A stretch of DNA of 64,000 bases, taken from Burkholderiales bacterium (GTDB lineage: Bacteria; Pseudomonadota; Gammaproteobacteria; Burkholderiales; Usitatibacteraceae). The notes under the pieces are model-generated. The model saw only the letters and a list, made by a program, of their open reading frames with translations. It was not told the origin of the DNA and made no database searches. The stretch lies in NCBI GenBank assembly GCA_017853245.1, contig JAFMJY010000001.1:1434-65433 (forward strand), written 5' to 3'. This document shows, one piece after another, positions 31,372-47,691 of this stretch; within the stretch, counting starts at the first letter, position 1, and each line of letters begins with the position of its first letter. Position numbers and translations under genes: made by a program.

Positions 31372-34300
31372 CTACTCCACCTCCCGCCACCCCGGCACCA
31401 ACGGGAAAAAGAGCCCCAGACGGCGCCCGTCGCCCAGCACCCGGGCATAGCGACGAAGTTGCTCCGCGTAGCGCTCGCGCTCCCGGTCGAGGAAGGCCTC
31501 CTCCCCACCGCCCTCGTGGCGCCCGGTCTTGTAGTCGACCACCCACCGCTCGCCGGAATCGGTGGTGAAGACGCGGTCCATCACCGCCGTGCGCAGGCGC
31601 TTGCCGTCGATGTATTGAATGCGCAGCTCGTTCGACGCATGTGCGTGTGAGCCCAGGATCCAGCGGCCACGCGCATCGGAGAGCGCTCCCGCCAGCGAGT
31701 CGAGCACGGAAACAACTGCCGGAGAGCGCTCCACCTCCGGAACCCCGCGACGTTCGAGCTCCGCAGCAATCCGCGGCGCGAGCCCCCGCACGCGGGATTC
31801 GCTCCACGCCGAAAGCCCCTCCTCCGCCATGCGTTGCAACCAACGGTGCGCCACGACACCCACCAGGCGCGCGGACTCGGACGCCCAGCTGAATTCGACG
31901 GGTGCACGGATCGCCTCGACGTCCAAACGCCACGCCGCCGTCGGGGCCGATACGGTGACGCGGCGAACCCCCGGATTCAATCGTCGTAGCGGCGCAACCG
32001 GGCCGAGGCGGATGTTCGCGGCTGGCGACGACGCAGCGGCCGCAACCGGCCCCTTTGACCGCACCGGCGCATCCCGGAAAGCCGGCTCCGCCACCGTCCA
32101 CGCCTTGCCAAGCAGGCTGGTGGCAGAAGGACGCCGTGCGCAGGCATTGCCCGCCGACGGCTCCTCCACCCCGACACGCCCCAATAAATGGAGCCGATGC
32201 TTCGCGCGCGTGGCAGCCACGTAGAGCAGGCGCTCGGCCTCGTGTCCCTCGGCGCGCTGCTCCAGCTTCTTCAGGTAGTCCGTATACGGATCCGCAGCGT
32301 CGTCCGAGGCCTTCACCGGCGCGACCAACAGCTCGCCGCCGGCCCGCACCTTCCAGCGCAGCAGCGGCGCCTCATCCCCTCGGGGCCGGCGGTCGAGGCC
32401 CGGCACGATGACCACGTCGAACTGCAGGCCCTTCGCCTTGTGGATGGTCATCACCTGCAGCGCCTCGGGTGCGGAGAGGTCCGGCGCCCCATAGCGGCTC
32501 GCCAAGTGCTCCTCGAGTCGCGCGACATCGGGAAGATCGTCGCCCTCCGCAATGTCGTCGAGGCAATCGAAGAACGCCTCCGCATCCTCGCGATCCACGG
32601 CCGCGGGCAGGCAAGCCGGGCCACCGAGGGCAAGCCAAGCGTTTTCAATCGCCTCGCGCAACGATCCGCGCAAGCGATTGTCGACGGCTGAGAAGAGCAC
32701 TGGCGCGACGTCAGCGAGGGTCGCCTGACCGCCCGCCGTCAGGCGCGACACCCGGGCAGGGTCCGCGAGCAGCTCGATCACCGTGCGATCGTCGTCGTTC
32801 ACCAGCGCATGCAGGTCGGCGAGCGTGAGGCCGCTCCAGGGCGCCCTCAGCACAGCGAGCCACGAGAGGCGGTCCCCAAGATGCGAGAGCGCCCGGGTGA
32901 GTGCCACCAGGTCGATCACCGGCTGGCGCGTGGCGAGCGGTTCGATATCGAGGGCGCGGTACCGCAAGCCCGCCTCACGAAGCGCCGGCGCGATACGGTC
33001 CAGGTGAGAGCGATTGCGAACGAGCACCGCGACCTTCGCCCCCGGATCGCCCCCGTGCGCCGCGCGAATCAGCCGAACGACGGCGGCCGCCTCGTCGTGC
33101 CGGGCCCGATCGTCATCCGCGTCGACGAACGCGTGCCACTGCACAGCTTCGCCCGCAAGCGGCGGATGGTGCGCGGTCGAAGCCGCGAACGACACCGCCC
33201 CCTCGGTCGGGTTGTCCTTTGCCGGCAGGATGCTCGGGAAGGATTCGTTCACCCACGCAACCAACGCCTCCTGCGAACGAAAGTTGGTGGTGAGGCGTAC
33301 CGGCTCGAGACGCACGTTCGGCAGGCCGTCGTTCCATGCGCGCAGGAAGAGGCCCACCTCGGCTTCCCGGAACCGGTAGATCGACTGCATCGGGTCGCCT
33401 ACCGCGAACACGGTGCGCCCGTCGCCAGGCGCCCATCCGGCTGTCAGCAGCTCCAGTAGCCGCCACTGCCCGTGGGAAGTGTCCTGAAACTCGTCCACGA
33501 GAATGTGGGCGATGCGCGCATCCAGGCGAAGCAAGAGGTCCGAAGGCTCGTCGGTAGCGCCCAGGGCGTGGACTGCAGCCCCGGCAATCTCGGCGTGGTC
33601 GACCCTCCCGCGCTCCGCGAACACCAATCGTAATTGCGCCGCGGCAACGGGGAGCACGCGCGCTGCGGCCTCCATGGCCAGCCAGTGGTCGTCGGAAACA
33701 TCCCCCGGGGGCATGAGGAGGACGTCGCTCAGCGCCTCACGCAGACTGGGCACGCCGCTCAGATGCCCGATCAGCGACTCGAGCCGCTCCTTGGCGCCCT
33801 TGGTGCCGCCCTCCTTCACCTGCGGGAAGCCCTCGGCCTTGGTGATTCTCTCGCGCCACTTTTCGCCCGTCTTCACCAGAAGAAGGGTTGCGATGCCAAG
33901 CCACGCGGGCGCGGATGGCTCGTCGGCCGGCGGCAAGGCTCGCCTTCCCTCCGCAAGCAGGATTCGCGAGGCGATCCCCATTCGGCGAAGGTGGCCCGCT
34001 GCACTGTCGATGAGGGACAGGAGCTCCGGAACCTGGCCCGGCGGGAATAGCGACAGCGCTTGCCCGATCAACGCACGACGCTCCGACTGGTATGCCCGTT
34101 CAACCGAGAGGCGGTCGAGCTCCAGGCGTTGGTCTCGCCCGAGCCATTGGTCGCGTCGCGCAAGCATGCCGGCCAGCAGCTTGGCAGCGACGTGCTGATT
34201 GCCATCGAGGCGCACGAGCAGGCTTGCAATCGCTTCGTCATAGCGCTTGTCGGAATCGATCAAGGACAGCGTGCGCACTGCTGCCTCCTGGAAGAGCTCA

Positions 34301-34749
34301 CCCGCGTCGTCGACGAGGCCTGGCTGCCAGCCCAGGCGCGCCATCACCGGCAGCTGGCGCGTGAGCGACACGTTGAAGGAGTCGATGGTTCGCACGCGCA
34401 GCCTCGCGGTGTTTTCGCGAAGGCGCCAGCCGCACTCGGCGTCCCGCTTCAGCGCCTCGACGGCAAGCGCGTGCGTTCGGCGATCGTTTTCATCGGCATG
34501 GGCGTTCAAGGGCGCGCCGCCCGTGTCAAGCGCCTCGAGGACGCGGCGCTTCATCTCCGCGGCAGCCTTGCGGGTGAAGGTCATCGCGAGGATTTCCTCG
34601 GGCTCCGTCACCGTGGCGAGCAGGCGCAGATAGCGCTGGATGAGCAGCGCCGTCTTCCCGGCGCCCGCGGGCGCCTGGACGATGAAGGATCGGCCGGGGT
34701 CGAGGGCGCGTTCGCGCTCGGCGGCGTCGGCTGGGATACGCGCGGTCAC
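31372..34749 (-). CDS. UvrD/Rep-type helicase with C-terminal PD-(D/E)XK nuclease (AddA-like)
   Basis: 1125 aa. Walker A VQAPAGAGKTALL, helicase motif II VDEFQDTS, C-terminal RecB-type nuclease VVDYKTGRHEG. The GTG start overlaps the upstream stop (GTGA). Confidence 0.9.
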   Translation of the reverse strand: MTARIPADAAERERALDPGRSFIVQAPAGAGKTALLIQRYLRLLATVTEPEEILAMTFTRKAAAEMKRRVLEALDTGGAPLNAHADENDRRTHALAVEALKRDAECGWRLRENTARLRVRTIDSFNVSLTRQLPVMARLGWQPGLVDDAGELFQEAAVRTLSLIDSDKRYDEAIASLLVRLDGNQHVAAKLLAGMLARRDQWLGRDQRLELDRLSVERAYQSERRALIGQALSLFPPGQVPELLSLIDSAAGHLRRMGIASRILLAEGRRALPPADEPSAPAWLGIATLLLVKTGEKWRERITKAEGFPQVKEGGTKGAKERLESLIGHLSGVPSLREALSDVLLMPPGDVSDDHWLAMEAAARVLPVAAAQLRLVFAERGRVDHAEIAGAAVHALGATDEPSDLLLRLDARIAHILVDEFQDTSHGQWRLLELLTAGWAPGDGRTVFAVGDPMQSIYRFREAEVGLFLRAWNDGLPNVRLEPVRLTTNFRSQEALVAWVNESFPSILPAKDNPTEGAVSFAASTAHHPPLAGEAVQWHAFVDADDDRARHDEAAAVVRLIRAAHGGDPGAKVAVLVRNRSHLDRIAPALREAGLRYRALDIEPLATRQPVIDLVALTRALSHLGDRLSWLAVLRAPWSGLTLADLHALVNDDDRTVIELLADPARVSRLTAGGQATLADVAPVLFSAVDNRLRGSLREAIENAWLALGGPACLPAAVDREDAEAFFDCLDDIAEGDDLPDVARLEEHLASRYGAPDLSAPEALQVMTIHKAKGLQFDVVIVPGLDRRPRGDEAPLLRWKVRAGGELLVAPVKASDDAADPYTDYLKKLEQRAEGHEAERLLYVAATRAKHRLHLLGRVGVEEPSAGNACARRPSATSLLGKAWTVAEPAFRDAPVRSKGPVAAAASSPAANIRLGPVAPLRRLNPGVRRVTVSAPTAAWRLDVEAIRAPVEFSWASESARLVGVVAHRWLQRMAEEGLSAWSESRVRGLAPRIAAELERRGVPEVERSPAVVSVLDSLAGALSDARGRWILGSHAHASNELRIQYIDGKRLRTAVMDRVFTTDSGERWVVDYKTGRHEGGGEEAFLDRERERYAEQLRRYARVLGDGRRLGLFFPLVPGWREVE

Positions 34750-37538
34750 GAGGGCTCTCCCGTTGACGCCTCGGCCTCTTCGGACTCACCGTCGTCGTCG
34801 CTTCGATCCTCGTCTTCGAGCGCCACCCGCTCGCGCACGCGACAGATGGAGCCGACATCGCAGCGCTGACAGGTGGCGCCCTGGCGCTTGGGGTCCACGC
34901 GCGCATCGCCCTTGACAAACGCCACCGCCAGCGCATCGATCGCCTCACGCCAGCCTTGCAGCAATTGGTCCCACGAACCGTAATGCTTGCTCGCCGTCTG
35001 GTGGGACGACACGACGCCCACCTGGGGAATCCAGCCGGATTGACGGGAAAGGCCCTCGAAGCGTCGCTTGCCTGCCCTCAGGGTGGCAAACGCCACGGCG
35101 CCCACCGGCTCCTTCATCGAGTGGGCGTAGAGCGGCAGCTGCGGATCATCCGGCCGTTCGCCCAGCCAGCCGCCCACCGACGCGCGCCCGCTCTTGTAGT
35201 CGATGACTGCGAGAGTGCCATTGTCGAGGCGATCAACCCGGTCCACCTGGCCCCGGAGCGTGAGCGGCCCCGCCGCGAGTTCCATGCGCTCTTCCGTCTG
35301 TACCACGCTGAACGGTGTGCGGCCCTTCTCCGCCTGCAGCCATTCCAGCGCCACGCGAGCGAGCCGTTCGCGCTCGAGTTCTTCGAAGCGACCCTCCAAT
35401 CGGCCCGGCAATTCGGCTTTCAAGCGACGCACTGAACGCTGCGCCGCCTTGTCGACGATCGCCTTCAGCTCGTCGGGCGTCTTGCTCACGAGGCTCGCAT
35501 GATCGACGAGCGATTCCCACACGCTTGCGAATAGCGCATGCAGGAGGATGCCGCGCTCCGCAGCGCCCAAGCCCGGTTCGACGGATTCGATACCCTCGGC
35601 ACCCAGGCGATGGCGCGCGAAGGCGCGGAACGGGCACGCGGCCTGGTCGGCAAGGATGCGCGTGCCGCCTCGGGGTGACGAGTCTGTCAGCACGGGCCCC
35701 GATTCGTCCTCGAAATGCGTGAACGCGTCTAGGGCCTGGCCGGCTGCGAATAGCGCGTCGAAGCGGGTTGGCTGCGTGCCGACCATCAGCGAACCCGCGT
35801 CAGCGACATCGACTTCCGTCAGCAGCGGGCTCGCCGCCAATGCCCGATCCGCATCGGCGAGCGCGTGCGAGAACACCACCTCGCTGGCCGCTCGAGCCCA
35901 TCCGCGCGTGATACGACGGTCGAGCTCCAGCGACGCTTCGGCGCTTGCCTGCGGGACACCCGCTTCCTTCTGGGCAAGCACGGGCAGGAACGGATGCGGC
36001 CGCGGCGATTGCGGCCACGCATCATCCGTGAGCCCGCAGACCCACAGGGCGTCGAAATCGAGGCCCACGGACTCCAGCAGGCCCAGCACCTGCACCGGCG
36101 CCTCGCCCGCATCCGGCTGGAACAGCGTTTCCGCGCAAGCCTCACGCAGATGACGCCGTGCCGCCGCGCCCGTGATGCGCCCGCTGACCGCGCCCAAGGC
36201 CCCGAGGGCTGCCAGCGCTTCATTCCACTTGGCGAGCGTCTGGTGCTCCGCGGCGTTGCGTGGCCGCTCGCCAGGAAAGCCGAACGCGGCTAGCACCCGC
36301 GCATAGGCGCTTGCCCACTCGGACGGCTCGGCAGCTCGGGATGGCAGGGCGGTCTCCGAGACCATCCTGAAGACGTGTTCGAGCGCCGGGCATGACGGTG
36401 GCTTCCCGCGCCCCGGGGCTGCGCGAGAGACATCGGCTACGAGCCTTGCCAGCAAATGGAAATCCATCAACGGTGGAACGACGTCGCGCAGCGCAAGATC
36501 GAGGCCGGCGCGAGACCCTCGCTCTGCCTCACCGCCCGCGAGAAAAGGCGATCGCAGCAGGCGGCTTGCACGATCGAACGGGATGGCGCCCGACACGAGA
36601 TCGATCGCCGTGAGCGCGGCATCGACGAGCGGAAACTCCAGCAGCGGCCGGCCCAGCGAGAGATCGAACAGCCCCGCCTCACCGCCCGGCGCCAGGACGC
36701 GGGAAAACACGCGTCGCACAAGCTCACGCTGCTCGGCGAGCGCGGGAACGACCACCGCGATACGCGGCATGCGCTCGCCGCGCCAGGCCTCGAGGCGAGT
36801 GCGGGCCCAGCGGGCCGCGAGTTCCAGCTCCTCTCGCGGGGATGTCATCGCCACTCGCCGAGGCACAACAACCTGCGCGGGTGGGCCCACATGAGCCACC
36901 GACACACCCGCTTGCTCGCATGCCGCCAATACTTCCCGTTGGGCCGGTTTCAGCAAGTCAAAGGCGTAGGCAACGACAAGGCAGGGCTTCTGATGTCCCA
37001 CGCGCTCGAGCATCGTGGGGACTATCGTGGGCAAGCGCGCTTCGTCGATCCACCGACGTCGCGCCGACTCCGCCTCCCACGCGCGAGCCCAACGAGTGAA
37101 GGACTGCGTGTCCTCCGTGGCAAAGGCTTCACGACCAGACCCCACTGTCACGTGCCACTCCTGCGCCAGGCGCCACGCACTTTGCGCTTCGCGCGCCAGT
37201 ACGGATGCGCCCACCAGCGTGGCCTCCCCGCCGTCCCGCGAAACGATGTTCTCCCAGGCCAGGCGCTCCACGGCGCGGGGAAGCAATTCGGGTAACGGCT
37301 CACCACCCTCCGCGAAAGACGCCACCTCGTAAAAGCGAACCAGCCAGCTATCCCAGGGGAGCACGTCCGGGGCGGGCCAACTGCGATTGCCAGAGACGAT
37401 GTGCCGCTCGGCCACGACAAGCTCGAGCGCGCGCGCCAGGCGGCGATTGGGCGTGACGACAACGACGCCCTGCGGCGCGTCGACCAAGCGGTCGATCAGG
37501 GCCTGATGGTCAGTGGGGAGCGTCGGTACAGCGGGCAT
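34746..37538 (-). CDS. PD-(D/E)XK nuclease family protein, AddB-like (probable DNA repair protein, TIGR03623-like by recollection)
   Basis: 930 aa with no Walker A. C-terminal nuclease motif AVIDYKSGR. Four Cys are arranged as in the AddB Fe-S staple (AACPFRAF ... CQRCDVGSIC). Confidence 0.85.
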   Translation of the reverse strand: MPAVPTLPTDHQALIDRLVDAPQGVVVVTPNRRLARALELVVAERHIVSGNRSWPAPDVLPWDSWLVRFYEVASFAEGGEPLPELLPRAVERLAWENIVSRDGGEATLVGASVLAREAQSAWRLAQEWHVTVGSGREAFATEDTQSFTRWARAWEAESARRRWIDEARLPTIVPTMLERVGHQKPCLVVAYAFDLLKPAQREVLAACEQAGVSVAHVGPPAQVVVPRRVAMTSPREELELAARWARTRLEAWRGERMPRIAVVVPALAEQRELVRRVFSRVLAPGGEAGLFDLSLGRPLLEFPLVDAALTAIDLVSGAIPFDRASRLLRSPFLAGGEAERGSRAGLDLALRDVVPPLMDFHLLARLVADVSRAAPGRGKPPSCPALEHVFRMVSETALPSRAAEPSEWASAYARVLAAFGFPGERPRNAAEHQTLAKWNEALAALGALGAVSGRITGAAARRHLREACAETLFQPDAGEAPVQVLGLLESVGLDFDALWVCGLTDDAWPQSPRPHPFLPVLAQKEAGVPQASAEASLELDRRITRGWARAASEVVFSHALADADRALAASPLLTEVDVADAGSLMVGTQPTRFDALFAAGQALDAFTHFEDESGPVLTDSSPRGGTRILADQAACPFRAFARHRLGAEGIESVEPGLGAAERGILLHALFASVWESLVDHASLVSKTPDELKAIVDKAAQRSVRRLKAELPGRLEGRFEELERERLARVALEWLQAEKGRTPFSVVQTEERMELAAGPLTLRGQVDRVDRLDNGTLAVIDYKSGRASVGGWLGERPDDPQLPLYAHSMKEPVGAVAFATLRAGKRRFEGLSRQSGWIPQVGVVSSHQTASKHYGSWDQLLQGWREAIDALAVAFVKGDARVDPKRQGATCQRCDVGSICRVRERVALEDEDRSDDDGESEEAEASTGEPS

Positions 37539-37613: not shown

Positions 37614-40064
37614 TTACTTGAAGGTGATGAACATGGCCGACGTCCACACCTTCGCGTCGTCCGCCTGCCGCCCGTAGAAATAAACCGGCCGAAAGCCCAT
37701 GGGGCCGTTCACCGGCTCAACCTCGAGCACTCCCGACACGTCTCGCGGCGTCGGCTGGTCGCTCATGCGCTCGACGGCGAGGAACAGCTCGCACCCGCCC
37801 AACTCCAGCCGGAGGCGGCCCTCGTTAGCGACCATTTTTGTATCGGTCACCGTCCATTTGCTCAGCAGGTCCGCACCGCTCACCGTCCAATCGAACGTCG
37901 GGCAGTGCACGAAGGGGTTTCCGGCCAGCGGGTCGCCGACTTTGACGTAGCTATCGATGCGCCCGTGGATGCGGATGCTGCAATTGGCCAGGTTGTCGAC
38001 GTCGATCACCACGCAGTCCGAGTCGCCGTAGGTATCCGTGCGAAACCCGATATCCGTCGGCCCCGCCCGCCACACGGACTCCTCGGGATGCTCGAAGCCA
38101 CCGCCCGCAAATCGGTTGATGACGCCATTTTGGATCGTGATGGTGCCTCGCCATTCCGCCCAGCGGTAGCGGTCGCGAATGCGCGCACCACCCCACCGGA
38201 CACGAATGCGCCGGTTAGAAAGGCCCGTGTCCTTTTGCAGGTCGCGATGAAAGATGCAGCCCGTGTGGTCGAACGCGGCGATCTCGTCCCAGCCAGCCGT
38301 GCCGAGAAATCGGTATTCGATCTTCGCCGGGCCGTTGTGGGTGAACTCGTCGCCCTGGATGTAGTTGCCGCATCGGGTGAGGCCCGCGTTTCGCTCGCCC
38401 GTGGCCGCCCAGGTATGGCGGGCCCGCAGCGCACGCCCGACGGTTGCCCGGTCCAGGTGGTCTGCGATGACGCCCGTGATGCCGCCTTTGGTGCCGAAGA
38501 CCTGCGTGCCCGGCAGCCCCCCACCCGGCCGGCCACGGTGCTCATCGCCCGACGCGGAGGCGCCCAGCTTGTAGCCCCTCGCAATCACATCTTGATAGAG
38601 CCAGCCGAAGTGGCCCCAGGAGGAGGAGATCTCGATCAGCCGCTCGAGCTTGGGGTGATGCCAATCCGGAATGTACCGACGCCCGCCGACGTGCGGCATG
38701 ACCAGGTGGTTTTCCGCATCGTCTATGTAGGCGGCCCACAGGTCCTCGATGGGCCACCGCCCAATCTCGACGCCCGTGCCCTTCATGTCCTCGTTCCAGA
38801 CGAAGGTTCGGTTGTGCTCGCCCTTGTCGTTGAAGGGGAAGTCTGGCGGCGTGTCCGCCAGGAAGACGACGTTGTGGTCGCCACCCGCCGTCGAGCTTCC
38901 GCACCACTCCTGAACGGGGTAGCAGACGAACTGGCCGCTGGTGTTGAGTTCTCGCATCACCTTCACGCCCAGCTCCCAGTTCTGGTCCGTGATCTGGAAG
39001 TCGTTGGCCGTGTAGGTCATCACGTCCAGCCCCGCAATGTCACGTCCGTACCGGGTGTTGTAGTCGGGGCTATTGGTGCCGACCGTGTCGTGGGAGTGCA
39101 CATGCAGGTCGGCATAGAAGGGCCTCGGGCAGGGCGAGTTCGCGTCGACCGCCACGTAGGCCGTGGCGGCGGCGCAATCGCGCGCGTCCACCAGAGCCGC
39201 CGTGACTTCCAACTCGCCCGCCTCTGCAGGCAGGCCATCGATGGCTGCCGTTGCCCACCCCGTCTGCGGCACCGGGATGTACTTGCGAATCAGCTCCGTA
39301 CCGTCCCGCGAAGCAACCACCCGGAAGCGGCCGCCCACATTGACGCAGGCATTGCCCCACTGATCGTGCGCGCTCACGCGCAAGGGAATGGGCGTATCGG
39401 GACGCACGATCCGCGGCCCGACGAGGGACAACGCGCTGGGCGCATCAGGAACGATGTCGATGATGACATCGCCGGGCACCGCCACGAATCGCGACGTGCC
39501 CAACGGGTCCACATAGCACCGGAAACGGAACTTGTCCTCGACGAACGTCTGGACTCGCGTTCCCGGCCCGCCGCTGCGCCGGTCACCCAAACGAATGATG
39601 ATGTGATCGCCGGCGTTCAGATACCCGTCCACCGTGTCCACGATGATGGCCTTCTGGAACGGGCGCTCATGTCCCTTTTGGTCGAACCGCACCTTGAGCG
39701 ACTGGACCGCTGCGGGGCTCTGGCCCGGCTGAAGGTTCCCGGCCTGGTACTCCGCCGACACGTAATTGGCCCCCGAGGGATTGGTGGTCTGGAAGAGCGC
39801 CCAGTCCGAGTAAAACTTGAACGTGGCCTTGAACCACGCGCCGTCGGCTACACCCGAGGCGCCAATCTCGTAATCGAGAACGATCTCCGTCCAGCTTCCC
39901 GCCACAAGCCGATCGACATTGCACGTGACCTTCCCGACAAAGGGCCGCGCCTTGTTGCGGTCGTAGAGCCCCTCGGGCGCGAAATAGTCCCCGAGCTTCT
40001 TGCGAATCGTGCGCTCATCAAACGCGGGCTGGGACGGGCGGGCGGGGTCACTCATCTTGTTCAT
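37614..40064 (-). CDS. Uncharacterised 816-aa cytoplasmic protein with PHP-like metallohydrolase core flanked by beta-rich domains
   Basis: Long ORF with normal composition. Ordered ligand pattern: DLHVHSHD (39087..39110), QEW, GGDHNV, MPHVGG, SSWGH, SGDEHRG. No signal peptide or TM. It lies 28 nt downstream of the DASS gene. Confidence 0.85.
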   Translation of the reverse strand: MNKMSDPARPSQPAFDERTIRKKLGDYFAPEGLYDRNKARPFVGKVTCNVDRLVAGSWTEIVLDYEIGASGVADGAWFKATFKFYSDWALFQTTNPSGANYVSAEYQAGNLQPGQSPAAVQSLKVRFDQKGHERPFQKAIIVDTVDGYLNAGDHIIIRLGDRRSGGPGTRVQTFVEDKFRFRCYVDPLGTSRFVAVPGDVIIDIVPDAPSALSLVGPRIVRPDTPIPLRVSAHDQWGNACVNVGGRFRVVASRDGTELIRKYIPVPQTGWATAAIDGLPAEAGELEVTAALVDARDCAAATAYVAVDANSPCPRPFYADLHVHSHDTVGTNSPDYNTRYGRDIAGLDVMTYTANDFQITDQNWELGVKVMRELNTSGQFVCYPVQEWCGSSTAGGDHNVVFLADTPPDFPFNDKGEHNRTFVWNEDMKGTGVEIGRWPIEDLWAAYIDDAENHLVMPHVGGRRYIPDWHHPKLERLIEISSSWGHFGWLYQDVIARGYKLGASASGDEHRGRPGGGLPGTQVFGTKGGITGVIADHLDRATVGRALRARHTWAATGERNAGLTRCGNYIQGDEFTHNGPAKIEYRFLGTAGWDEIAAFDHTGCIFHRDLQKDTGLSNRRIRVRWGGARIRDRYRWAEWRGTITIQNGVINRFAGGGFEHPEESVWRAGPTDIGFRTDTYGDSDCVVIDVDNLANCSIRIHGRIDSYVKVGDPLAGNPFVHCPTFDWTVSGADLLSKWTVTDTKMVANEGRLRLELGGCELFLAVERMSDQPTPRDVSGVLEVEPVNGPMGFRPVYFYGRQADDAKVWTSAMFITFK

Positions 40065-40092
40065 GGGTTGAGGTTTCAGTGGAGGCGGTTGA

Positions 40093-41640
40093 TTACAGTT
40101 TCCCGAACGGCCACGGCGCGGCAGGGTCCCACACCGGCACGCCCAGGAACGCGTACCAGGGAGCCATCACCAGGATGCCGTAGGCGATGGCCAGCAGCAC
40201 GGCCACCCAGCCCACCTTGAAGTAATCGCTCATGGAGAAGGTGCCGCTCGAATAGGCGATTACCGCCGCCGTGATCTGGGTCGGCAGGAGGTAGGCGAAG
40301 GTGTCGGTATCAGCCACGAGCATGGTGAAGGCCACCGGGTGAAGCCCAAGCTTGGGCGCCAGCGCGAGCAGGATTGGCGCAATCATGGTGACTGCAGCAA
40401 TGTTGGAGAGCATGCCGAGCCGCATGATGTGGGTGCCCACCATGAAGACCAGCAGGATCATCCACCACGATTGGCCAGCGCCCACCGGGTGCAGCACATC
40501 GGCAAGCCACGTGGCCAGCCCGGAGGAGGACATTGCCGAGGAGAGAGAAAGTGCCCCCGCCAGGAGCAGCAAGGTGCCCCAGATGGTTCGGTCCTGGAGC
40601 TCCTTCCACTTGAACCCGAAGAGGCCGGGAACGAAGAGCACGGCAAGGCCCAGCAGCGCGACGTTGTGGGGCGCCACCGTGTGCAGGGACTTTTCCGTCA
40701 TCCACGCAATGGCCACCAGCGCGAAAACAACGAGGATCAGCCACTCGCTCTGACTCATGCGGTGCAGGGCGGCGTGCTGCTTTTCAATCACCTGCGCGCC
40801 CCCGGCGACGGCCACGTTGCGCGTCTTGAAGTAGAACTGAACCCACCACTGGGTGATGACGAACATGCCAAGGTAGGGCCACTGCATGATGAACCAGTCC
40901 ACATACGAAAGCTTCAGCTTGAGCTGCTTTTCGAACAAGTCGATGAGCACCAGGTTCGGCAGGTGCGCCGTCAGGATGCACATGCCGCTGATCATCGAGC
41001 CGTAGACCAGCGTCTGGATGACGATGGCCTTCTTGCCGTTGCGCTCAGCCTCGGAGTCCCCGAAGAGCGCGGTGATGCCGTTGATCACCGGCAGCAGCGT
41101 AGCGGCTCGGGCATTGGCGGCCGGAATGATGAACGAGAGAGCAAAGTTCACTGCGAACATTGCCCAGATCACGCCGTTTACTGTCTTCACCCGCATCCAC
41201 TTGAGCAGCGACAGCGCGATGCGCCGGTCGAGCCCGCCTGCCTGCATGATGGCTGCGAAGATGAACGCCGCCAGGCACAGGAACACCACCGGCGTGGTGA
41301 AGCCATCGGCGGCCTTCGGAAAGGGCTTCACCGCGTTGGTCATCACCAGCAGCGTGGGAATCAGCAGCCCGGAAATGCCAACCGGCATGGCCTCGAAGAT
41401 CCACATGGTGCAGGCCCAAACCATGACGGCCAGCGTTGCCTGGCCAGCGGGAGTGAGGCCGGCGGGCTTGGGCATGCCGAAATAGATGTAGAAAAACAGC
41501 GCCCAGGCGATGACGAAACCGATGAGCGTCTTCCGCGGCGTGAGGCCTGTTGCCCGGATATTGTTGGCGAACGCGGCGAGAAATCCGCCATTGGCGGCTT
41601 GCGCACCCGAATTGCCTGCGTGCTGTGATTGGTCAGCCAT
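40093..41640 (-). CDS. DASS/SLC13-family anion:cation symporter
   Basis: ATG 41640 is preceded by AAGGAGGA. 515 aa and highly hydrophobic. The duplicated hairpin-tip-like motifs PAANARAATLLPV and LSNIAAVTMIAPI are reminiscent of the SNT motifs of DASS carriers. Confidence 0.85.
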   Translation of the reverse strand: MADQSQHAGNSGAQAANGGFLAAFANNIRATGLTPRKTLIGFVIAWALFFYIYFGMPKPAGLTPAGQATLAVMVWACTMWIFEAMPVGISGLLIPTLLVMTNAVKPFPKAADGFTTPVVFLCLAAFIFAAIMQAGGLDRRIALSLLKWMRVKTVNGVIWAMFAVNFALSFIIPAANARAATLLPVINGITALFGDSEAERNGKKAIVIQTLVYGSMISGMCILTAHLPNLVLIDLFEKQLKLKLSYVDWFIMQWPYLGMFVITQWWVQFYFKTRNVAVAGGAQVIEKQHAALHRMSQSEWLILVVFALVAIAWMTEKSLHTVAPHNVALLGLAVLFVPGLFGFKWKELQDRTIWGTLLLLAGALSLSSAMSSSGLATWLADVLHPVGAGQSWWMILLVFMVGTHIMRLGMLSNIAAVTMIAPILLALAPKLGLHPVAFTMLVADTDTFAYLLPTQITAAVIAYSSGTFSMSDYFKVGWVAVLLAIAYGILVMAPWYAFLGVPVWDPAAPWPFGKL

Positions 41641-41783
41641 GCTCCCCTCCTCCTTGAGGTTCACCGCTCGATGGACAGGCCCGGACAAAACCGAGGTGAT
41701 GCGCACGGTTGCCGCCGGGCCCTTGCCTTATAGTTCTTGTTCCCCTGCTGCCGGACGATTGAAGCAAATACTGAGACGACGAG

Positions 41784-42530
41784 ATGTCAGCCAGCCGACA
41801 TTCGCTGAAGGAAGCGCCCGCGCAGGGGGGGTCCAGCGGGGGGATCGTGCCCAACGCCGGCTTTACCTCCAACTTTCTCGACCAACTCAGCCCCACGGAC
41901 CGAGCCGGGCTCGAAGCGTTGGGCAGGGTTCGGCAGTTCGCGTCGGGAGAGCGAGTTTTCCGGGCGGGAGAGGCGGGAAGCCATGTGTACTTTCTCCAGA
42001 CAGGCAAGCTTCGAATCGTTCAACTGTCCCCTCTGGGCCGCGATGTCATCTTGTGGTTTTGCCTGCCCGGAGAGATTTGTGGGCTGGCGGAGGTCGCTCG
42101 CGGAGGGGGCCGGGTAGTGAGCGCCGTGGCTTGCGAGCCCTCCGGCGTGATCGCCGTGTCGCAGGAGCAATTCAGGCAATTCCTGCTCGAGCGGCCTCAC
42201 GTCGCGCTGCTCAGCATGCAGGTGCTGGCCTCCCGGTTGCGGGTGCTCGGCGAGATGTTCGTGAACCTGGTGTCCGACGATGTGAACACCCGGATCGCAA
42301 AGCTGATCCTGCGGCTATCCGCCCGCTATGGAAGGCGCGAGGGGTCCGAAGTCGTCCTGGACACCCCGCTCACCCACCAGGAGATCGCCGACATGGTCGG
42401 CACCACCCGACAAACGGCCACCAGCGTTCTTTCCTCCCTTCGGAGGGCGGGGGTGCTGTCCATCGACAACCACCGGATCCGCATCGGACAGGAAAAGTTC
42501 CTCGCGGACATCGCCGGCCGCAGGGCCTGA
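41784..42530 (+). CDS. Crp/Fnr-family transcriptional regulator
   Basis: 248 aa. cNMP-binding-like beta-roll (VFRAGEAGSHVYFLQTGKLRIV) and C-terminal HTH (THQEIADMVGTTRQTATSVLSSLRRAG). No Fnr-type N-terminal Cys cluster. Confidence 0.9.
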   Translation: MSASRHSLKEAPAQGGSSGGIVPNAGFTSNFLDQLSPTDRAGLEALGRVRQFASGERVFRAGEAGSHVYFLQTGKLRIVQLSPLGRDVILWFCLPGEICGLAEVARGGGRVVSAVACEPSGVIAVSQEQFRQFLLERPHVALLSMQVLASRLRVLGEMFVNLVSDDVNTRIAKLILRLSARYGRREGSEVVLDTPLTHQEIADMVGTTRQTATSVLSSLRRAGVLSIDNHRIRIGQEKFLADIAGRRA

Positions 42531-43347: not shown

Positions 43348-43674
43348 GTGAGCCAGAACATCATCGAGGTGACGGACGCATCTTTCGACCAGCAGGTGCT
43401 CAAAAGCACCACGCCAGTGCTCGTGGACTATTGGGCCGAGTGGTGCGGCCCCTGCAAGATGATCGCGCCGGTGCTGGAGCAGATCGCCCAGGAATACCAG
43501 GGCCGCCTTACGGTGGCCAAGTTGAACATCGACGACAACCCCGCCACCCCGCCCAAGTACGGCATCCGCGGCATTCCTACCCTGATGCTGTTCAAGGGCG
43601 GGAACGTGGAGGCCACCAAGGTGGGCGCCCTCTCGAAGACCCAACTCAACGCTTTCATTGACAGCAACATCTGA
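43348..43674 (+). CDS. trxA: Thioredoxin
   Basis: GTG 43348 inside ORF 43159..43674. 108 aa, active site WAEWCGPCK. Confidence 0.95.
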
Positions 43675-43822
43675 ATCCGGCTAGCCTTATTTCGTCTGGC
43701 AGTTCTCCCCCCGCGGCAACTCCCCCCCGCAGCGTTTTCCCCGGCAGCCTGCCAGCCCCCTCGGTTTCACCCGGTCCGCGCCCGCCCAGCGGGCGCTCCC
43801 ACAACGAGCTGACGCCCCGCGC
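43675..43822 (+). promoter_or_regulatory. C-rich leader upstream of rho (candidate rut-like autoregulatory region)
   Basis: The 148-nt gap has runs CTCCCCCC, CTCCCCCCC, TTTTCCCC and CAGCCCCC, and relatively few G on the sense strand. Confidence 0.35.
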
Positions 43823-45076
43823 ATGTACCTTTCCGACCTGAAGCTGAAGCACGTCTCCGAACTCCTGGAGATGGCGACCGAAATCGAGGGCGCCAACCGC
43901 CTTCGGAAGCAGGAGCTGATCTTCGCGCTCCTGAAATTCCACGCCAAGAAAGGCGCCGCCATCTTTGGCGACGGCACCCTCGAAGTGCTGCAGGATGGCT
44001 TCGGGTTCCTGCGCTCGCCGGATACGAGCTACCTCGCCGGCCCGGACGACATTTACGTCTCCCCCTCCCAGATTCGCCGCTTCAACCTGCACTCGGGCGA
44101 CACCATCGAGGGCGAGATTCGCACCCCCAAGGATGGCGAGCGCTACTTCGCGCTGGTGAAGGTCGACAAGGTGAACGGCGAGCCGCCGGAGAACACCAAG
44201 ACCAAGATCCTCTTTGAGAACCTCACGCCGCTGCACCCGGATGAGCCGCTCAAGCTCGAGCGCGACATCAAGGCGGAGGAAAACCTCACCGGGCGCGTCA
44301 TCGACATCATGGCGCCCATCGGCAAGGGCCAGCGCGGCTTGATCATCTCGCCGCCCAAGGCCGGCAAGACGGTGCTGATGCAGCACATGGCCCATGCGCT
44401 GAAGGCCAACCACCCGGACATCGTCCTCATCGTGCTGCTCATCGACGAGCGCCCGGAGGAAGTGACGGAAATGAGCCGCAGTGTGCGCGGCGAAGTGGTG
44501 GCCTCCACCTTCGATGAACCCGCCACCCGCCACGTGCAAGTGGCGGAGATGGTGATCGAGAAGGCCAAACGCCTCGTGGAGCACAAGAAGGATGTGGTGA
44601 TCCTGCTGGATTCCATCACGCGCCTTGCCCGCGCCTACAACACCGTGGTGCCTGCCTCCGGCAAGGTGCTGACGGGTGGCGTGGATTCCAACGCCCTGCA
44701 GCGCCCGAAGCGCTTCTTCGGCGCCGCGCGCAACGTGGAGGAAGGCGGCTCGCTCACCATCATCGCCACGGCCCTCATCGATACCGGCTCCCGCATGGAC
44801 GACGTGATCTACGAGGAGTTCAAGGGCACGGGCAACATGGAAATTCACCTCGACCGGCGCATGAGCGAAAAGCGCGTGTACCCCGCCATCAACGTGAACC
44901 GCTCGGGCACGCGCCGCGAGGAGCTGCTGATTGCCCCGGACATCCTTCCCAAGGTCTGGATCCTGCGCAAGCTCCTCTACGGCATGGATGAGCTCGAGGC
45001 GACGGAATTCCTGATCGACAAGCTGCGCGCGACGAAGGGCAACGACGAGTTCTTCGCCTCGATGAAGAAGGGCTGA
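43823..45076 (+). CDS. rho: Transcription termination factor Rho
   Basis: 417 aa. [15 protein letters not shown], the RNA-binding domain, and Walker [11 protein letters not shown]. Confidence 0.98.
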
Positions 45077-45088
45077 TCGGAGCCCATC

Positions 45089-46087
45089 GTGCGCGCAGCG
45101 AGCCGACGCCTCGTCGTTGCAGCCGCGCTCGCCGCGGTGTCGGGGCTCGCGTTCGCGCAGGCGCCGGCGAAGAGCGCGCCGCTCGAGAAGGTCGTCTTCG
45201 CGACCAACTGGTACGCCCAGGCCGAGCACGGCGGCTTCTATCAGGCGATAGCCGACGGACTGTACCGCCAAGCGGGGCTGGATGTCACCATCCGCATGGG
45301 CGGCCCGCAGGTGAATCCCCTGCAGCTTCTGGTGGCCAACCAGATCGATATCGCCATGGGCGATGACCTGCAAACGCTCGGCGCCATTGAGCAGGGCCTG
45401 CCGGTGGTCACCATCGGGGCAACTTTCCAGCGCAACCCGACGGTGATCGTCTCGCACCCTGGGGTGAAATCGCTTGCGGACCTGAAGGGGCGGCCCATCG
45501 CCATAGGCGCTGCAAGCAACACAACTTTCTGGCCGTGGCTCAAGCAGCGCTACGGCTACACGGATGACCAGAAGCGGCCGTACGCCTTCAGCGTGCAACC
45601 TTTCCTCGCGGACAAGACGCTCTCGCAGCAGGGGTACGTGACGTCTGAGCCGCACTCGATCGAAAAGGGTGGCGTGAAGCCCACGGTGTTCCTGCTGGCG
45701 GATGCAGGCTACCCCCCGTATGCGCAATCGTTGGTGGTCACGCGCGCCAGTTCGACCAAGCGGGCGGAAGCGCTGAAGCGGTTTCTCTCGGCCTCTGCCG
45801 AAGGGTGGAAGCGCTACCTCGGCAACCCTGCCGCGGCCAACGCATTGATCAAGCGGGACAACCCGCAGATGACAGATGACCTGCTCGCGTTCGGCCACGC
45901 CAAGATCCGCGAGCACAGGCTGGTGACCGGCGGCGATGCGCCCCAGCTCGGCCTCTTCGCGATGACCGACGCGCGCTGGAAGCAGACACTGGATTTCATG
46001 CGGGCGGGCAACTTGCTCAAGCCCGGCGTCGACCACTCTCAGGCGTACACGCTCGCCATCGTCCGGGACGTGAAGGTCCTGCCCTGA
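45089..46087 (+). CDS. ABC transporter substrate-binding protein (NMT1/THI5-like, nitrate/sulfonate/bicarbonate family)
   Basis: GTG 45089 with GGAG 6 nt upstream, 12 nt after the rho stop. Signal peptide, then a typical SsuA/NMT1-like body (FATNWYAQAEHGGFYQA). Confidence 0.85.
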   Translation: MRAASRRLVVAAALAAVSGLAFAQAPAKSAPLEKVVFATNWYAQAEHGGFYQAIADGLYRQAGLDVTIRMGGPQVNPLQLLVANQIDIAMGDDLQTLGAIEQGLPVVTIGATFQRNPTVIVSHPGVKSLADLKGRPIAIGAASNTTFWPWLKQRYGYTDDQKRPYAFSVQPFLADKTLSQQGYVTSEPHSIEKGGVKPTVFLLADAGYPPYAQSLVVTRASSTKRAEALKRFLSASAEGWKRYLGNPAAANALIKRDNPQMTDDLLAFGHAKIREHRLVTGGDAPQLGLFAMTDARWKQTLDFMRAGNLLKPGVDHSQAYTLAIVRDVKVLP

Positions 46088-46091
46088 CGGC

Positions 46092-46886
46092 GTGCGCGGC
46101 CCCATGGATCGCGCCCCTGTCCTCTCGCTCGAAGCGGTCGCCAAGACCTACGCCTCGGGCACTCACGCGCTAGCTCCCAATGACCTGACGCTGCATTCGG
46201 GCGAGTTCCTGACGCTGCTCGGTCCCTCGGGCTGCGGCAAATCGACGCTGCTGCACATCGTGGCGGGGCTGGCTCCTGCTAGTAGCGGTGAGGTGCGCTG
46301 GTGGGGCGGGGATTTCGGCGCCACGGGTTCGGACGGCCGGCGGATCGGGTACGTGTTCCAGTCCCCGACCTTGATGCCCTGGGCGCGCGTGGAGGAAAAC
46401 GTGCGCCTGCCCCTGGACCTTGCTGGCGTCGCCAAGCCCGAGGCTAAGCGTTCGGTGGGCGAGGCGCTCGAACTGGTGGGGCTTTCGGAGTTCGCGCGCC
46501 ATTATCCCCGGGAGCTGTCGGGCGGCATGCAGATGCGAGTCTCGATTGCCCGCGCGCTGGTGACACAGCCGGACCTGCTGCTGATGGACGAGCCCTTCGG
46601 GGCGCTGGATGACTTCACCCGGCAGAGGCTGGATTCGGAGCTGCTCTCCCTGTGGTCTGCGCGGCGGTTCTCTGTGGTGTTCGTCACCCACAACATCTAC
46701 GAGGCGGTATTCCTCTCCACGCGCGTGGCGGTGATGGCCGCGCGCCCGGGGCGGATTCTTGCGGACATCGCGATCGAGGAGCCGCACCCCCGTGGTGAGG
46801 CGTTCCGGGTGTCGACCGCGTTTGCGGGCTACTGCCAGCGGCTGACGGGTCTCGTGGCTGCAGCAGGCGCTCGGGAGCTTCGCTGA
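46092..46886 (+). CDS. ABC transporter ATP-binding protein (NitT/TauT family)
   Basis: Walker A GPSGCGKSTLL, LSGGMQMRVSIARAL, LLMDEPFGALD. The start is GTG 46092 or ATG 46104. Confidence 0.9.
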   Translation: MRGPMDRAPVLSLEAVAKTYASGTHALAPNDLTLHSGEFLTLLGPSGCGKSTLLHIVAGLAPASSGEVRWWGGDFGATGSDGRRIGYVFQSPTLMPWARVEENVRLPLDLAGVAKPEAKRSVGEALELVGLSEFARHYPRELSGGMQMRVSIARALVTQPDLLLMDEPFGALDDFTRQRLDSELLSLWSARRFSVVFVTHNIYEAVFLSTRVAVMAARPGRILADIAIEEPHPRGEAFRVSTAFAGYCQRLTGLVAAAGARELR

Positions 46887-46887
46887 C

Positions 46888-47691
46888 ATGGCACTCCGTG
46901 AGGACAACCCTGGCCGATGGCTGCGCTACGGCGCTCCGGTGCTCATCGCCGCCCTCTTCCTCGCCCTATGGCAGGGCGCTGTGGTCTTCTGGGAGGTGCC
47001 GCCCTGGCTGGTGCCCTCGCCCCTGCTGGTGCTGGAAACGTTGGTCATCGATCGGGAGTTGCTGTTTCGTTCGCTGGGGGTGACGCTGGGTATCGCGCTA
47101 GCTGCCTTGGCGATCGCCACCGTTCTTGGCGTACTCGCCGCGCTGCTGTTCGTGCAAAGCCGCTGGATCGAGATGAGCCTCTTTCCCTACGCGGTGCTGC
47201 TCCAGGTAACCCCCATCGTGGCCATCGCGCCGCTCATCATCATCTGGGTGCGGGATGTGCAGGTAGCCCTGGTGGTGTGCGCCGTGGTGGTGGCGATCTT
47301 TCCGATCATCTCGAACACCACTCTCGGCTTGCGCAGCGTCGACCCCGGGCTGCTAGCGCTCTTCAGGCTTTGTCGGGCGAACCGGTGGCAGGAGCTCACC
47401 CGGCTACGGATTCCTTCCGCACTGCCGTTCTTCTTTGGGGGCCTACGGATTGCGTCGGGTCTGGCGCTGATTGGGGCGGTGGTCGCCGAGTTCGTGGCTG
47501 GAACAGGTGGGGCGAGTGCGGGGTTGGCGTACCAGATTCTGCTAGCAGGGTTTCAGCTGAATATTCCGAGGCTGTTTGCAGCTCTGGTATTGATTGCGGG
47601 GGCGGGGGTGGGCCTTTTCGCCACGACCATCTGGGCGTCGGGCCGGGCGCTGGCCCGTTGGCATGCCCCTGACTCACCCGTTCGGGGGTAA
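46888..47691 (+). CDS. ABC transporter permease (NitT/TauT family)
   Basis: 267 aa, six TM segments, 1-nt gap from the ATPase gene. Confidence 0.88.
   Translation: MALREDNPGRWLRYGAPVLIAALFLALWQGAVVFWEVPPWLVPSPLLVLETLVIDRELLFRSLGVTLGIALAALAIATVLGVLAALLFVQSRWIEMSLFPYAVLLQVTPIVAIAPLIIIWVRDVQVALVVCAVVVAIFPIISNTTLGLRSVDPGLLALFRLCRANRWQELTRLRIPSALPFFFGGLRIASGLALIGAVVAEFVAGTGGASAGLAYQILLAGFQLNIPRLFAALVLIAGAGVGLFATTIWASGRALARWHAPDSPVRG

Follow-up and report, generated by a model that had tools for sequence, protein, structure and literature searches.

A putative PHP-fold, DUF3604-related metallohydrolase encoded beside anion transporters

Barrels of the PHP and amidohydrolase type hold their metals at the C-terminal ends of the strands, and the known chemistry of the PHP group is the hydrolysis of phosphoesters and carbamates. 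Carbamates are the substrates of the CehA/McbA enzymes; thus, the PHP fold is not confined to phosphoesters. Characterized PHP hydrolases share one motif order (HxH after beta1, Glu on beta3, His, His, DxH) and carry out Zn- or Mn-dependent hydrolysis of anionic esters. Among them, the haloalkyl phosphodiesterase Sb-PDE is a secreted, Zn-dependent phosphodiesterase of 441 amino acids (aa) (PMC5460133). Here, we analyzed a gene for an 816-aa protein located on the minus strand at positions 37614..40064 of a 64,000-nucleotide stretch of DNA (the window) from a Burkholderiales bacterium (GenBank assembly GCA_017853245.1, contig JAFMJY010000001.1, positions 1,434 to 65,433 of the forward strand). 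A model that saw only the sequence letters and a list of open reading frames (ORFs) had read the product as a cytoplasmic multidomain protein with the full ligand pattern of a PHP-like hydrolase and no assignable function; this is referred to as the original prediction. Our reading, to which we assign a probability of roughly 0.75–0.8, is that the protein is a cytoplasmic metal-dependent hydrolase and that its gene forms, with a transporter gene, a two-gene module through which an anion is imported and hydrolyzed.

The gene is real. The ORF list and translation of the window place an ATG start at the head of the 816-aa frame, and the GC contents of its three codon positions (GC1/2/3) are 0.63/0.48/0.84 in a window of 66.6% GC. 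The third-position value is comparable to those of the adjoining genes, which encode a divalent anion:Na+ symporter (DASS; 0.85), AddB (0.78), and AddA (0.82). A 771-aa ORF on the opposite strand (37905..40220, plus) has the inverted pattern (0.82/0.50/0.63) and a composition rich in R, V, A, G, and P (13.5% Arg, 12.8% Val, 11.9% Ala), and is therefore a shadow frame. The original prediction had called the amino-acid composition of the product ordinary, its antisense partner noise, and its third-position GC similar to that of its neighbors, and this observation is confirmed. Inspection of hydropathy and of the N terminus found neither a transmembrane segment nor a signal peptide, as had also been proposed: the Kyte-Doolittle mean over 19 residues peaks at 1.21, and the N terminus is polar, so the protein is predicted to be cytoplasmic. 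The 64-kb window holds no second copy of the gene.

Structure prediction placed a PHP-like barrel at the center of the protein (residue numbers count Met1 as 1). The full-length AlphaFold2 model, built from a 57-sequence alignment, has a predicted local distance difference test score (pLDDT) of 79 and a predicted TM-score (pTM) of 0.80, and it contains an alpha/beta core at approximately aa 314–555 between all-beta regions at approximately aa 44–305 and 559–815, a layout that agrees with the beta-rich flanks originally noticed by eye. A second model, limited to aa 300–575 and built from 78 sequences of 29–87% identity, reached a pLDDT of 85.6 and a pTM of 0.86. When this domain model was compared with the PDB using Foldseek, 3e38 ranked first (E 1e-9, probability 1.0, TM-scores 0.55/0.45), and matches were also obtained to 7ug9, the PHP domain of RNase AM (E 4e-5, probability 1.0), and to 2yxo, a histidinol phosphate phosphatase (E 0.13). 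These matches of a predicted structure support a catalytic core with the distorted (beta/alpha)7 fold of a PHP barrel, for which the invariant columns described below offer further evidence; in the window, the putative catalytic domain (~aa 314–555) corresponds to 38400..39125 on the minus strand. The matches of the full-length model were discarded since they were driven by immunoglobulin-like (Ig-like) repeats (complement C3/C5, GH2), with TM-scores of ~0.13.

The flanking regions consist of strands according to DSSP on the AlphaFold2 model. The N-terminal all-beta region (~aa 44–306; 39147..39935, minus strand) was predicted to form two beta-sandwich or Ig-like modules, and two stretches originally quoted from it are KFRFRCYVDPLG (aa 178–189) and SAHDQWGNAC (aa 231–240). 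The latter overlaps a conserved D-x-WGN motif of the second module (aa 234–238), of which D234 and N238 are invariant in a diverse alignment, and the N-terminal region has weak profile similarity to Ig-like repeats with a D-WGN motif (FUS1p, E 0.007). The C-terminal all-beta region spans approximately aa 559–816 (37617..38390, minus strand), and its initial ~140 residues (up to about aa 700) also occur in distant relatives of 700–780 aa.

Every motif quoted in the original prediction was found where it had been placed: DLHVHSHD at aa 319–326 (39087..39110), QEW at 385–387, GGDHNV at 394–399, MPHVGG at 456–461, SSWGH at 481–485, and SGDEHRG at 505–511. The candidate metal ligands are D319, H321, H323, D326, E386, H458, H485, D507, and H509, and the barrel also contains the conserved residues R341, N354, D355, N398, and R512. 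The PHP motif order is present as H321-x-H323, E386, H458, H485, and D507-x-H509. In the domain model, beta1 (314–319), beta2 (348–354), beta3 (379–387), beta4 (453–458), beta5 (476–481), and beta6 (501–504) follow one another along the chain, and every candidate ligand sits at or just past the C-terminal end of one of these successive strands. Across 78 sequences, down to 29% identity, the invariant positions are D319, H321, R341, N354, D355, E386, W387, N398, H458, E474, E478, S481, W488, D507, H509, and R512; a 14-sequence alignment of the domain alone agrees with this set.

The full tri-metal ligand set proposed originally stands as a prediction. D319, H321, E386, H458, D507, and H509 are invariant, while the canonical beta2 histidine is replaced by Y350, and H323, H397, and H485 vary outside the group of orthologues at 64–83% identity, within which they are invariant. 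These orthologues combine H321-x-H323 with Tyr350 on beta2, whereas the distant subfamily has H-x-Gln together with a His at the Tyr350 position. Position 326 is acidic (D/E) in both subfamilies, so that one of the positions expected for a third metal is conserved and the other is Y350 in this protein, the equivalence being drawn from motif order. The reciprocal change at 323 and 350 suggests that one metal ligand has been relocated, and the exchange of HxH plus Tyr for HxQ plus His looks compensatory, which would be unexpected in a dead domain. Taken together, the invariant core ligands and this compensatory-looking swap point to a maintained active site; from the sequence, metal is predicted to bind at the PHP-type site, and the protein would be expected to have hydrolytic chemistry.

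The second line of evidence is the company that the gene keeps. In the window, a DASS-family transporter gene (40093..41706, minus strand; Na_sulph_symp, 229 bits; TIGR00785, 218 bits against a cutoff of 198.6) lies directly upstream of the putative hydrolase on the same strand, 28 nt from its start, and its product is related to VcINDY and SLC13 structures. A promoter and terminator scan found no terminator-like site between the two genes, and the DASS gene is a probable operon partner, presumably co-transcribed with the hydrolase gene. A divergent gene next to the pair (41784..42530, plus strand) encodes a Crp/Fnr-family protein with Pfam cNMP_binding and HTH_Crp_2 domains, which is probably the regulator of the pair. 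Oxygen sensing of the Fnr type was rejected for this protein because it has no N-terminal Cys cluster.

Gene context was counted in 80 fetched orthologue loci from alpha-, beta-, and gammaproteobacteria (61–82% identity). A transporter was encoded within 4.5 kb of the hydrolase in 73 loci, and six of the seven loci without one end at a contig edge. The transporter belonged to the DASS family in 48 loci, to an SsuA-type NitT/TauT ATP-binding cassette (ABC) system in 18, to the TTT family in five, and to two types in the remaining two. Conservation of the DASS neighbor had been put forward originally as a check; the gene is a same-strand neighbor in 48–50 of the loci, typically directly upstream, with 55–88% identity. 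The 18 ABC loci have the gene order ATPase, substrate-binding protein (SBP), permease, in which the SBP passes the TIGR01728 (SsuA_fam) model with 167 bits and the other subunits are TauB/TauC-like, and the five TTT loci carry TctCBA. In Janthinobacterium sp. CG3, an inserted IS110-family transposase gene (L028:8202-9353(+); L numbers are our labels for loci) separates the ABC permease gene from the hydrolase gene. Regulators of the Crp family were detected by tblastn in 31 loci, mostly in divergent orientation on the gene maps, and GntR/UTRA regulators in 18; a unit consisting of a GntR gene divergent from three ABC genes and the hydrolase gene occurs in Pseudomonas azotoformans, Rhizobium etli, Methylospira mobilis, and Pelomonas. 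These counts show a near-universal partnership between the hydrolase and a transporter. The module is kept while the type of transporter is swapped, which argues for a self-contained unit of import plus a single hydrolase in which the transported molecule is the substrate of the enzyme.

Relatives of the protein are numerous and are catalogued under an uncharacterized family. A word-indexed search returned 1488 close homologues, with full-length orthologues at 64–82% identity at the top, and an exhaustive phmmer search of 1.84 billion cluster representatives returned 2327 relatives, of which 309 had E <1e-30. The latter include proteins of 700–800 aa at 28–35% identity that align over aa ~50–700. 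The protein itself scored 15.7 bits against DUF3604 (PF12228; E 0.005, cutoff 20.4), with an alignment covering only aa 525–559. Ten diverse relatives at 26–50% identity all pass the DUF3604 gathering score (22.2–65.8 bits). Relatives in this identity range match the query with phmmer E values from 1e-50 to 1e-237, and those of 700–800 aa that pass PF12228 do so with E values of 1e-50 to 1e-97 over aa ~50–700. Many orthologues also carry a precomputed PF12228 match and are named "DUF3604 domain-containing protein" or "hypothetical protein" in the databases. Because its relatives pass PF12228 although it fails to do so itself, the protein is placed as a divergent DUF3604 member through transitive homology only.

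None of the ten diverse relatives matched PF02811 (PHP) at E <= 0.01, and no PHP chain was recovered from the PDB sequences by hidden Markov model (HMM) searches with the single protein, a 74-sequence full-length profile, or the 14-sequence domain profile; the profile matches that did appear were dismissed as spurious (a fucose lectin repeat) or confined to Ig-like regions. No characterized family in Pfam, NCBIfam, or the PDB sequences matches the protein over its full length. The original prediction was thus correct that no characterized enzyme could be assigned, and the confident family match that it had named as a refutation did not arise in the searches run; its view of the chemistry as open has also survived. 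Of the checks that it proposed, the structural one returned a PHP barrel (3e38, probability 1.0), while the HMM searches for PF02811 and the CehA/McbA model of NCBIfam gave no match and PF12228 fell short. The protein is, at the same time, no orphan: relatives occur at 511 places in GTDB species-representative genomes. Hosts include Paraburkholderia xenovorans LB400, Burkholderia lata, Ralstonia, Cupriavidus, Massilia, and Janthinobacterium, as well as metagenome-assembled genomes of Arenicellales, Acidiferrobacterales, and Hyphomicrobiales, and relatives at 50–56% identity are found in Rhizobium, Pseudomonas, Leptolyngbya, Methylovorus, Methylophilus, Methylospira, and Hyphomicrobium. Many of these hosts are methylotrophs, cyanobacteria, or members of sulfur-oxidizing lineages.

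In the mechanism that we propose, the presumably co-transcribed DASS symporter would import a small, probably divalent, anion, and the hydrolase would provide the single catabolic step by cleaving this anion at a bi- or trinuclear metal center. Metals held by H321/H323, E386, H458, H485, and D507/H509 would activate water, and the invariant R341 and R512 could hold the anionic group of the substrate. The divergent Crp-family regulator would control the pair by sensing the substrate or nutrient status. In the most speculative step, sulfate or sulfite would be the product and would feed sulfur assimilation or oxidation.

The sulfur step draws on genes that accompany the hydrolase elsewhere. In two Leptolyngbya genomes, the genes are ordered sbp-cysT-cysW-hydrolase, with a 17-nt gap before the hydrolase; the CysT and CysW partners score 337 and 351 bits, above the equivalog cutoffs, and the SBP scores 275 bits on TIGR00971, above the subfamily cutoff. 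In the six closest relatives (L001, L003, L009, L025, L051, and L078), the hydrolase gene adjoins genes for a molybdenum (Mo) oxidoreductase, a 4Fe-4S subunit, and a DmsC/NrfD-like anchor. The oxidoreductase of one of these loci (L009:12537-15452(+)) is a 971-aa molybdopterin protein with an N-terminal Fe-S motif, CxxCxxxC, and no twin-arginine translocation signal. In composition, this trio resembles SoeABC, a sulfite dehydrogenase that faces the cytoplasm; NCBIfam gave no SoeA match that would confirm the likeness, and our literature search found nothing relevant joining SoeABC with DASS transporters. A ChrA-family transporter gene adjoins the hydrolase gene in four loci. The SsuA/Tau-like nature of the ABC systems in the proteobacterial loci is a further hint. 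In 27 of the 80 loci, the hydrolase is accompanied by a protein of ~295 aa with the SBP_bac_11 fold (e.g., L003:12455-13345(-) and L069:8819-9694(+)), which mostly has no signal peptide, carries the motif SNxCLDFHGDP...VFSDGNHHMAL, and, to judge by its sequence, looks like a cytoplasmic "periplasmic-binding-protein". This companion had no NCBIfam match and no convincing match among PDB sequences, and it is absent from the window.

Further sulfur-related neighbors were found around more distant relatives and in other orthologue loci. A metagenomic contig (L093:74-9218) encodes a DUF3604-type hydrolase of 40% identity in a run with a PRK08275 AprA/SdhA-like flavoprotein, a small ferredoxin, a HEAT-repeat protein, a Sulfotransfer_3 protein, an ABC system, and a second SsuA-like SBP; this run may represent an uncharacterized sulfo-compound pathway. 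The PRK08275 flavoprotein family also flanks Paraburkholderia loci (L052 and L060-L062), there with NtaA/DmoA-type luciferase-like monooxygenases (LLM), and genes for a luciferase-like monooxygenase and for an FMN reductase lie near the hydrolase gene of R. etli. The neighbors hint at a sulfate-like sulfur compound as the substrate. We therefore regard a substrate with a sulfate-like -SO3 group, such as a sulfate ester, a thiosulfate/S-sulfonate, or a polythionate-type anion, as possible and put it forward tentatively. The stronger proposal that the protein is the first PHP-fold sulfohydrolase, removing or splitting, in the cytoplasm, an -SO3 group of an imported sulfate-like anion (a small sulfate ester, a thiosulfate/S-sulfonate, or a polythionate such as trithionate), is unlikely on present evidence; to our knowledge, no gene has been assigned to trithionate hydrolase.

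A number of observations weigh against the uptake-plus-hydrolysis reading or its sulfur-specific form. The protein misses the DUF3604 gathering threshold, has no PF02811 match at E <= 1, and matches zero NCBIfam families at E <= 1, including CehA/McbA, HPP, YcdX, and TrpH; in the literature searched, DUF3604 is named only in passing, in unrelated work, and no member of the family is characterized there. None of the sulfur-linked accessory genes lies within the window, and the SoeABC-like trio and ChrA are confined to one sub-lineage. The transporter families involved (DASS, TTT, and NitT/TauT) are not substrate-specific: their cargo also includes carboxylates, nitrate, cyanate, and phosphonate-like anions. 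In addition, Phosphonate-bd is matched by the SBPs of the ABC loci (50–63 bits), and the GntR regulators are similar to PhnF and HutC. We know of no PHP-fold enzyme that hydrolyzes sulfo groups. Finally, the gene clusters around distant relatives are of peptide and carboxylate types, so substrate specificity varies across the family.

In a rival reading, the protein is a phosphoesterase with the classical chemistry of the PHP group: its substrate would be an imported anionic compound (an organophosphate, a phosphodiester, or a phosphonate-like molecule), and the phosphate set free would serve to scavenge phosphorus. The nearest structures are PHP phosphoesterases (3e38 as predicted, RNase AM, and histidinol phosphatase), and Zn-dependent phosphodiesterases are known among the characterized PHP enzymes, Sb-PDE being one (PMC5460133). 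The Phosphonate-bd matches of the SBPs point the same way, the ATPase-SBP-permease order with a GntR/UTRA regulator (PhnF model, 110 bits) recalls phn-type systems, and the Hyphomicrobium unit adjoins a Metallophos gene and an Ugp-like ABC system. The SBPs, however, score better on SsuA_fam and NMT1_2, passing TIGR01728 at 167 bits and failing TIGR01098 at 37.6 (cutoff 112), and the PhnF match of the regulator lies under its own cutoff. Moreover, pho or phn catabolic genes do not recur in the 80 loci, and in cyanobacteria the partner is CysTW, a system of the sulfate type, rather than Pst or Phn. We consider the phosphoesterase a rather doubtful alternative.

DASS and TTT transporters classically move di- and tricarboxylates, and PHP-like CehA/McbA enzymes are generally known to hydrolyze carbamates, so the pair could also form a carbon or nitrogen catabolic module in which an amidase, carbamate hydrolase, or esterase acts on an imported organic di- or tricarboxylate. 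Relatives at 26–33% identity are indeed found with MlrC, Amidohydro_3, Opp-type ABC, TctC, and Amidohydro_2 genes. This explanation is nonetheless improbable: the CehA/McbA model of NCBIfam was not matched, downstream catabolic enzymes do not recur with the orthologues in the 80 loci, and the sulfate-type ABC partner of the cyanobacteria does not fit a carboxylate. The hosts also count against it, in that methylotrophs, cyanobacteria, and autotrophs of sulfur-oxidizing lineages, to which many of them belong, rarely catabolize organic acids for carbon; for such hosts, we infer that a role in nutrient or energy acquisition is more natural. Least probable by far is a catalytically dead PHP domain, with the protein partnering the transporter in a binding, scaffolding, or regulatory role. 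Such a domain has a precedent in the inactive PHP domains of some DNA polymerase III alpha subunits and might account for the undetected PF02811 match, the Tyr at the beta2 His position, and the three listed His residues that vary across the family, but it is at odds with six core ligand positions and several polar and Arg residues that are invariant down to 29% identity and with the compensatory-looking shift at the variable positions.

The remaining genes near the putative hydrolase in the window were not linked to it by conservation. Directly downstream, after a 75-nt gap without a terminator-like site, are genes for AddA-like (1125 aa, UvrD helicase plus PD-(D/E)XK) and AddB-like (930 aa, PD-(D/E)XK) proteins, which overlap by 4 nt (31372..37538, minus strand). 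AddAB was considered as a functional partner, in view of PHP chemistry at DNA 3' ends, and was rejected because AddA or AddB occurs in 0 of the 80 orthologue loci. An NMT1-type SBP, an ABC ATPase, and a permease are encoded 5 kb from the hydrolase (45089..47691, plus strand); this system was set aside as unrelated to the orthologue-linked ABC systems because its SBP has 33% identity over 85 aa and its gene order differs. Two other long ORFs in the window, 43655..46144 (minus strand, 829 aa, antisense to Rho and the NMT1 SBP) and 40339..41628 (plus strand, 429 aa, antisense to the DASS gene), have inverted codon-position GC and no Pfam match. Such shadow ORFs are typical artefacts of high-GC DNA and can be mistaken for genes when sequence is read alone. 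Neither an Rfam scan of the window nor the promoter and terminator scan gave anything informative.

Two observations were made outside the window. An isocitrate lyase gene downstream of the hydrolase in Massilia loci was judged to be coincidental, as it encodes an ordinary enzyme of this kind and occurs in few loci only. A few kilobases from a distant DUF3604 relative (L082:14566-18238), a DarT-like gene adjoins a Macro/TIR-domain gene; these are probably an unrelated toxin or defense pair.

The hydrolase gene is nearly always the sole catabolic gene beside a dedicated importer, and its substrate, once found, would assign a function to the enzyme and, at the same time, to an entire clade of DASS, ABC, and TTT transporters. 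If the sulfur reading holds, the protein would represent a new enzyme class in sulfur assimilation or oxidation and would widen the chemistry of the PHP fold. With a sulfohydrolase, sulfur would be acquired or oxidized by a new route that is coupled to DASS, CysTW, SsuA-type, or TTT importers; in some lineages, this route would also be linked to a cytoplasmic protein with a sulfate-binding fold and to a sulfite dehydrogenase resembling SoeABC. A phosphoesterase or an amidase would instead be a routine addition to a well-studied superfamily.

Compared with known systems, the closest sequence family is DUF3604, which matches relatives of the protein best at segments of the PHP core (model positions ~108–220 and ~371–435). 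The DUF3604 model has 591 positions, of which the protein itself matches just short core stretches, and as the family is uncharacterized, membership implies no mechanism. The best structural match, 3e38 (BVU_3505 of Bacteroides vulgatus), is a structural-genomics target described as a two-domain predicted PHP-like metal-dependent phosphoesterase; it aligns to the catalytic domain over 269 columns with 15% identity and a root-mean-square deviation of ~6 A. It has 343 aa, without the 300-aa N-terminal and 250-aa C-terminal beta regions, has no HMM-detectable sequence similarity to the protein, and is itself uncharacterized. With the characterized enzymes RNase AM/TrpH (7ug9), L-histidinol phosphate phosphatase (2yxo), and Sb-PDE, the protein has only the barrel fold and the order of motifs in common. 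Relative to the characterized PHP hydrolases, the subfamily described here has the beta2 His changed to Tyr, and the protein is approximately three times larger. Its context is a dedicated anion importer, unlike the histidine biosynthesis, RNA turnover, or secretion of characterized PHP enzymes. The CehA/McbA carbaryl hydrolases provide an example of a PHP-like metal site engaged in non-phosphoester chemistry, although their architecture differs from that of the protein, which does not match their NCBIfam model at E <= 1. The protein combines a PHP/DUF3604 core, set in a distinct architecture of ~800 aa, with a modified ligand pattern and a conserved partnership with an importer.

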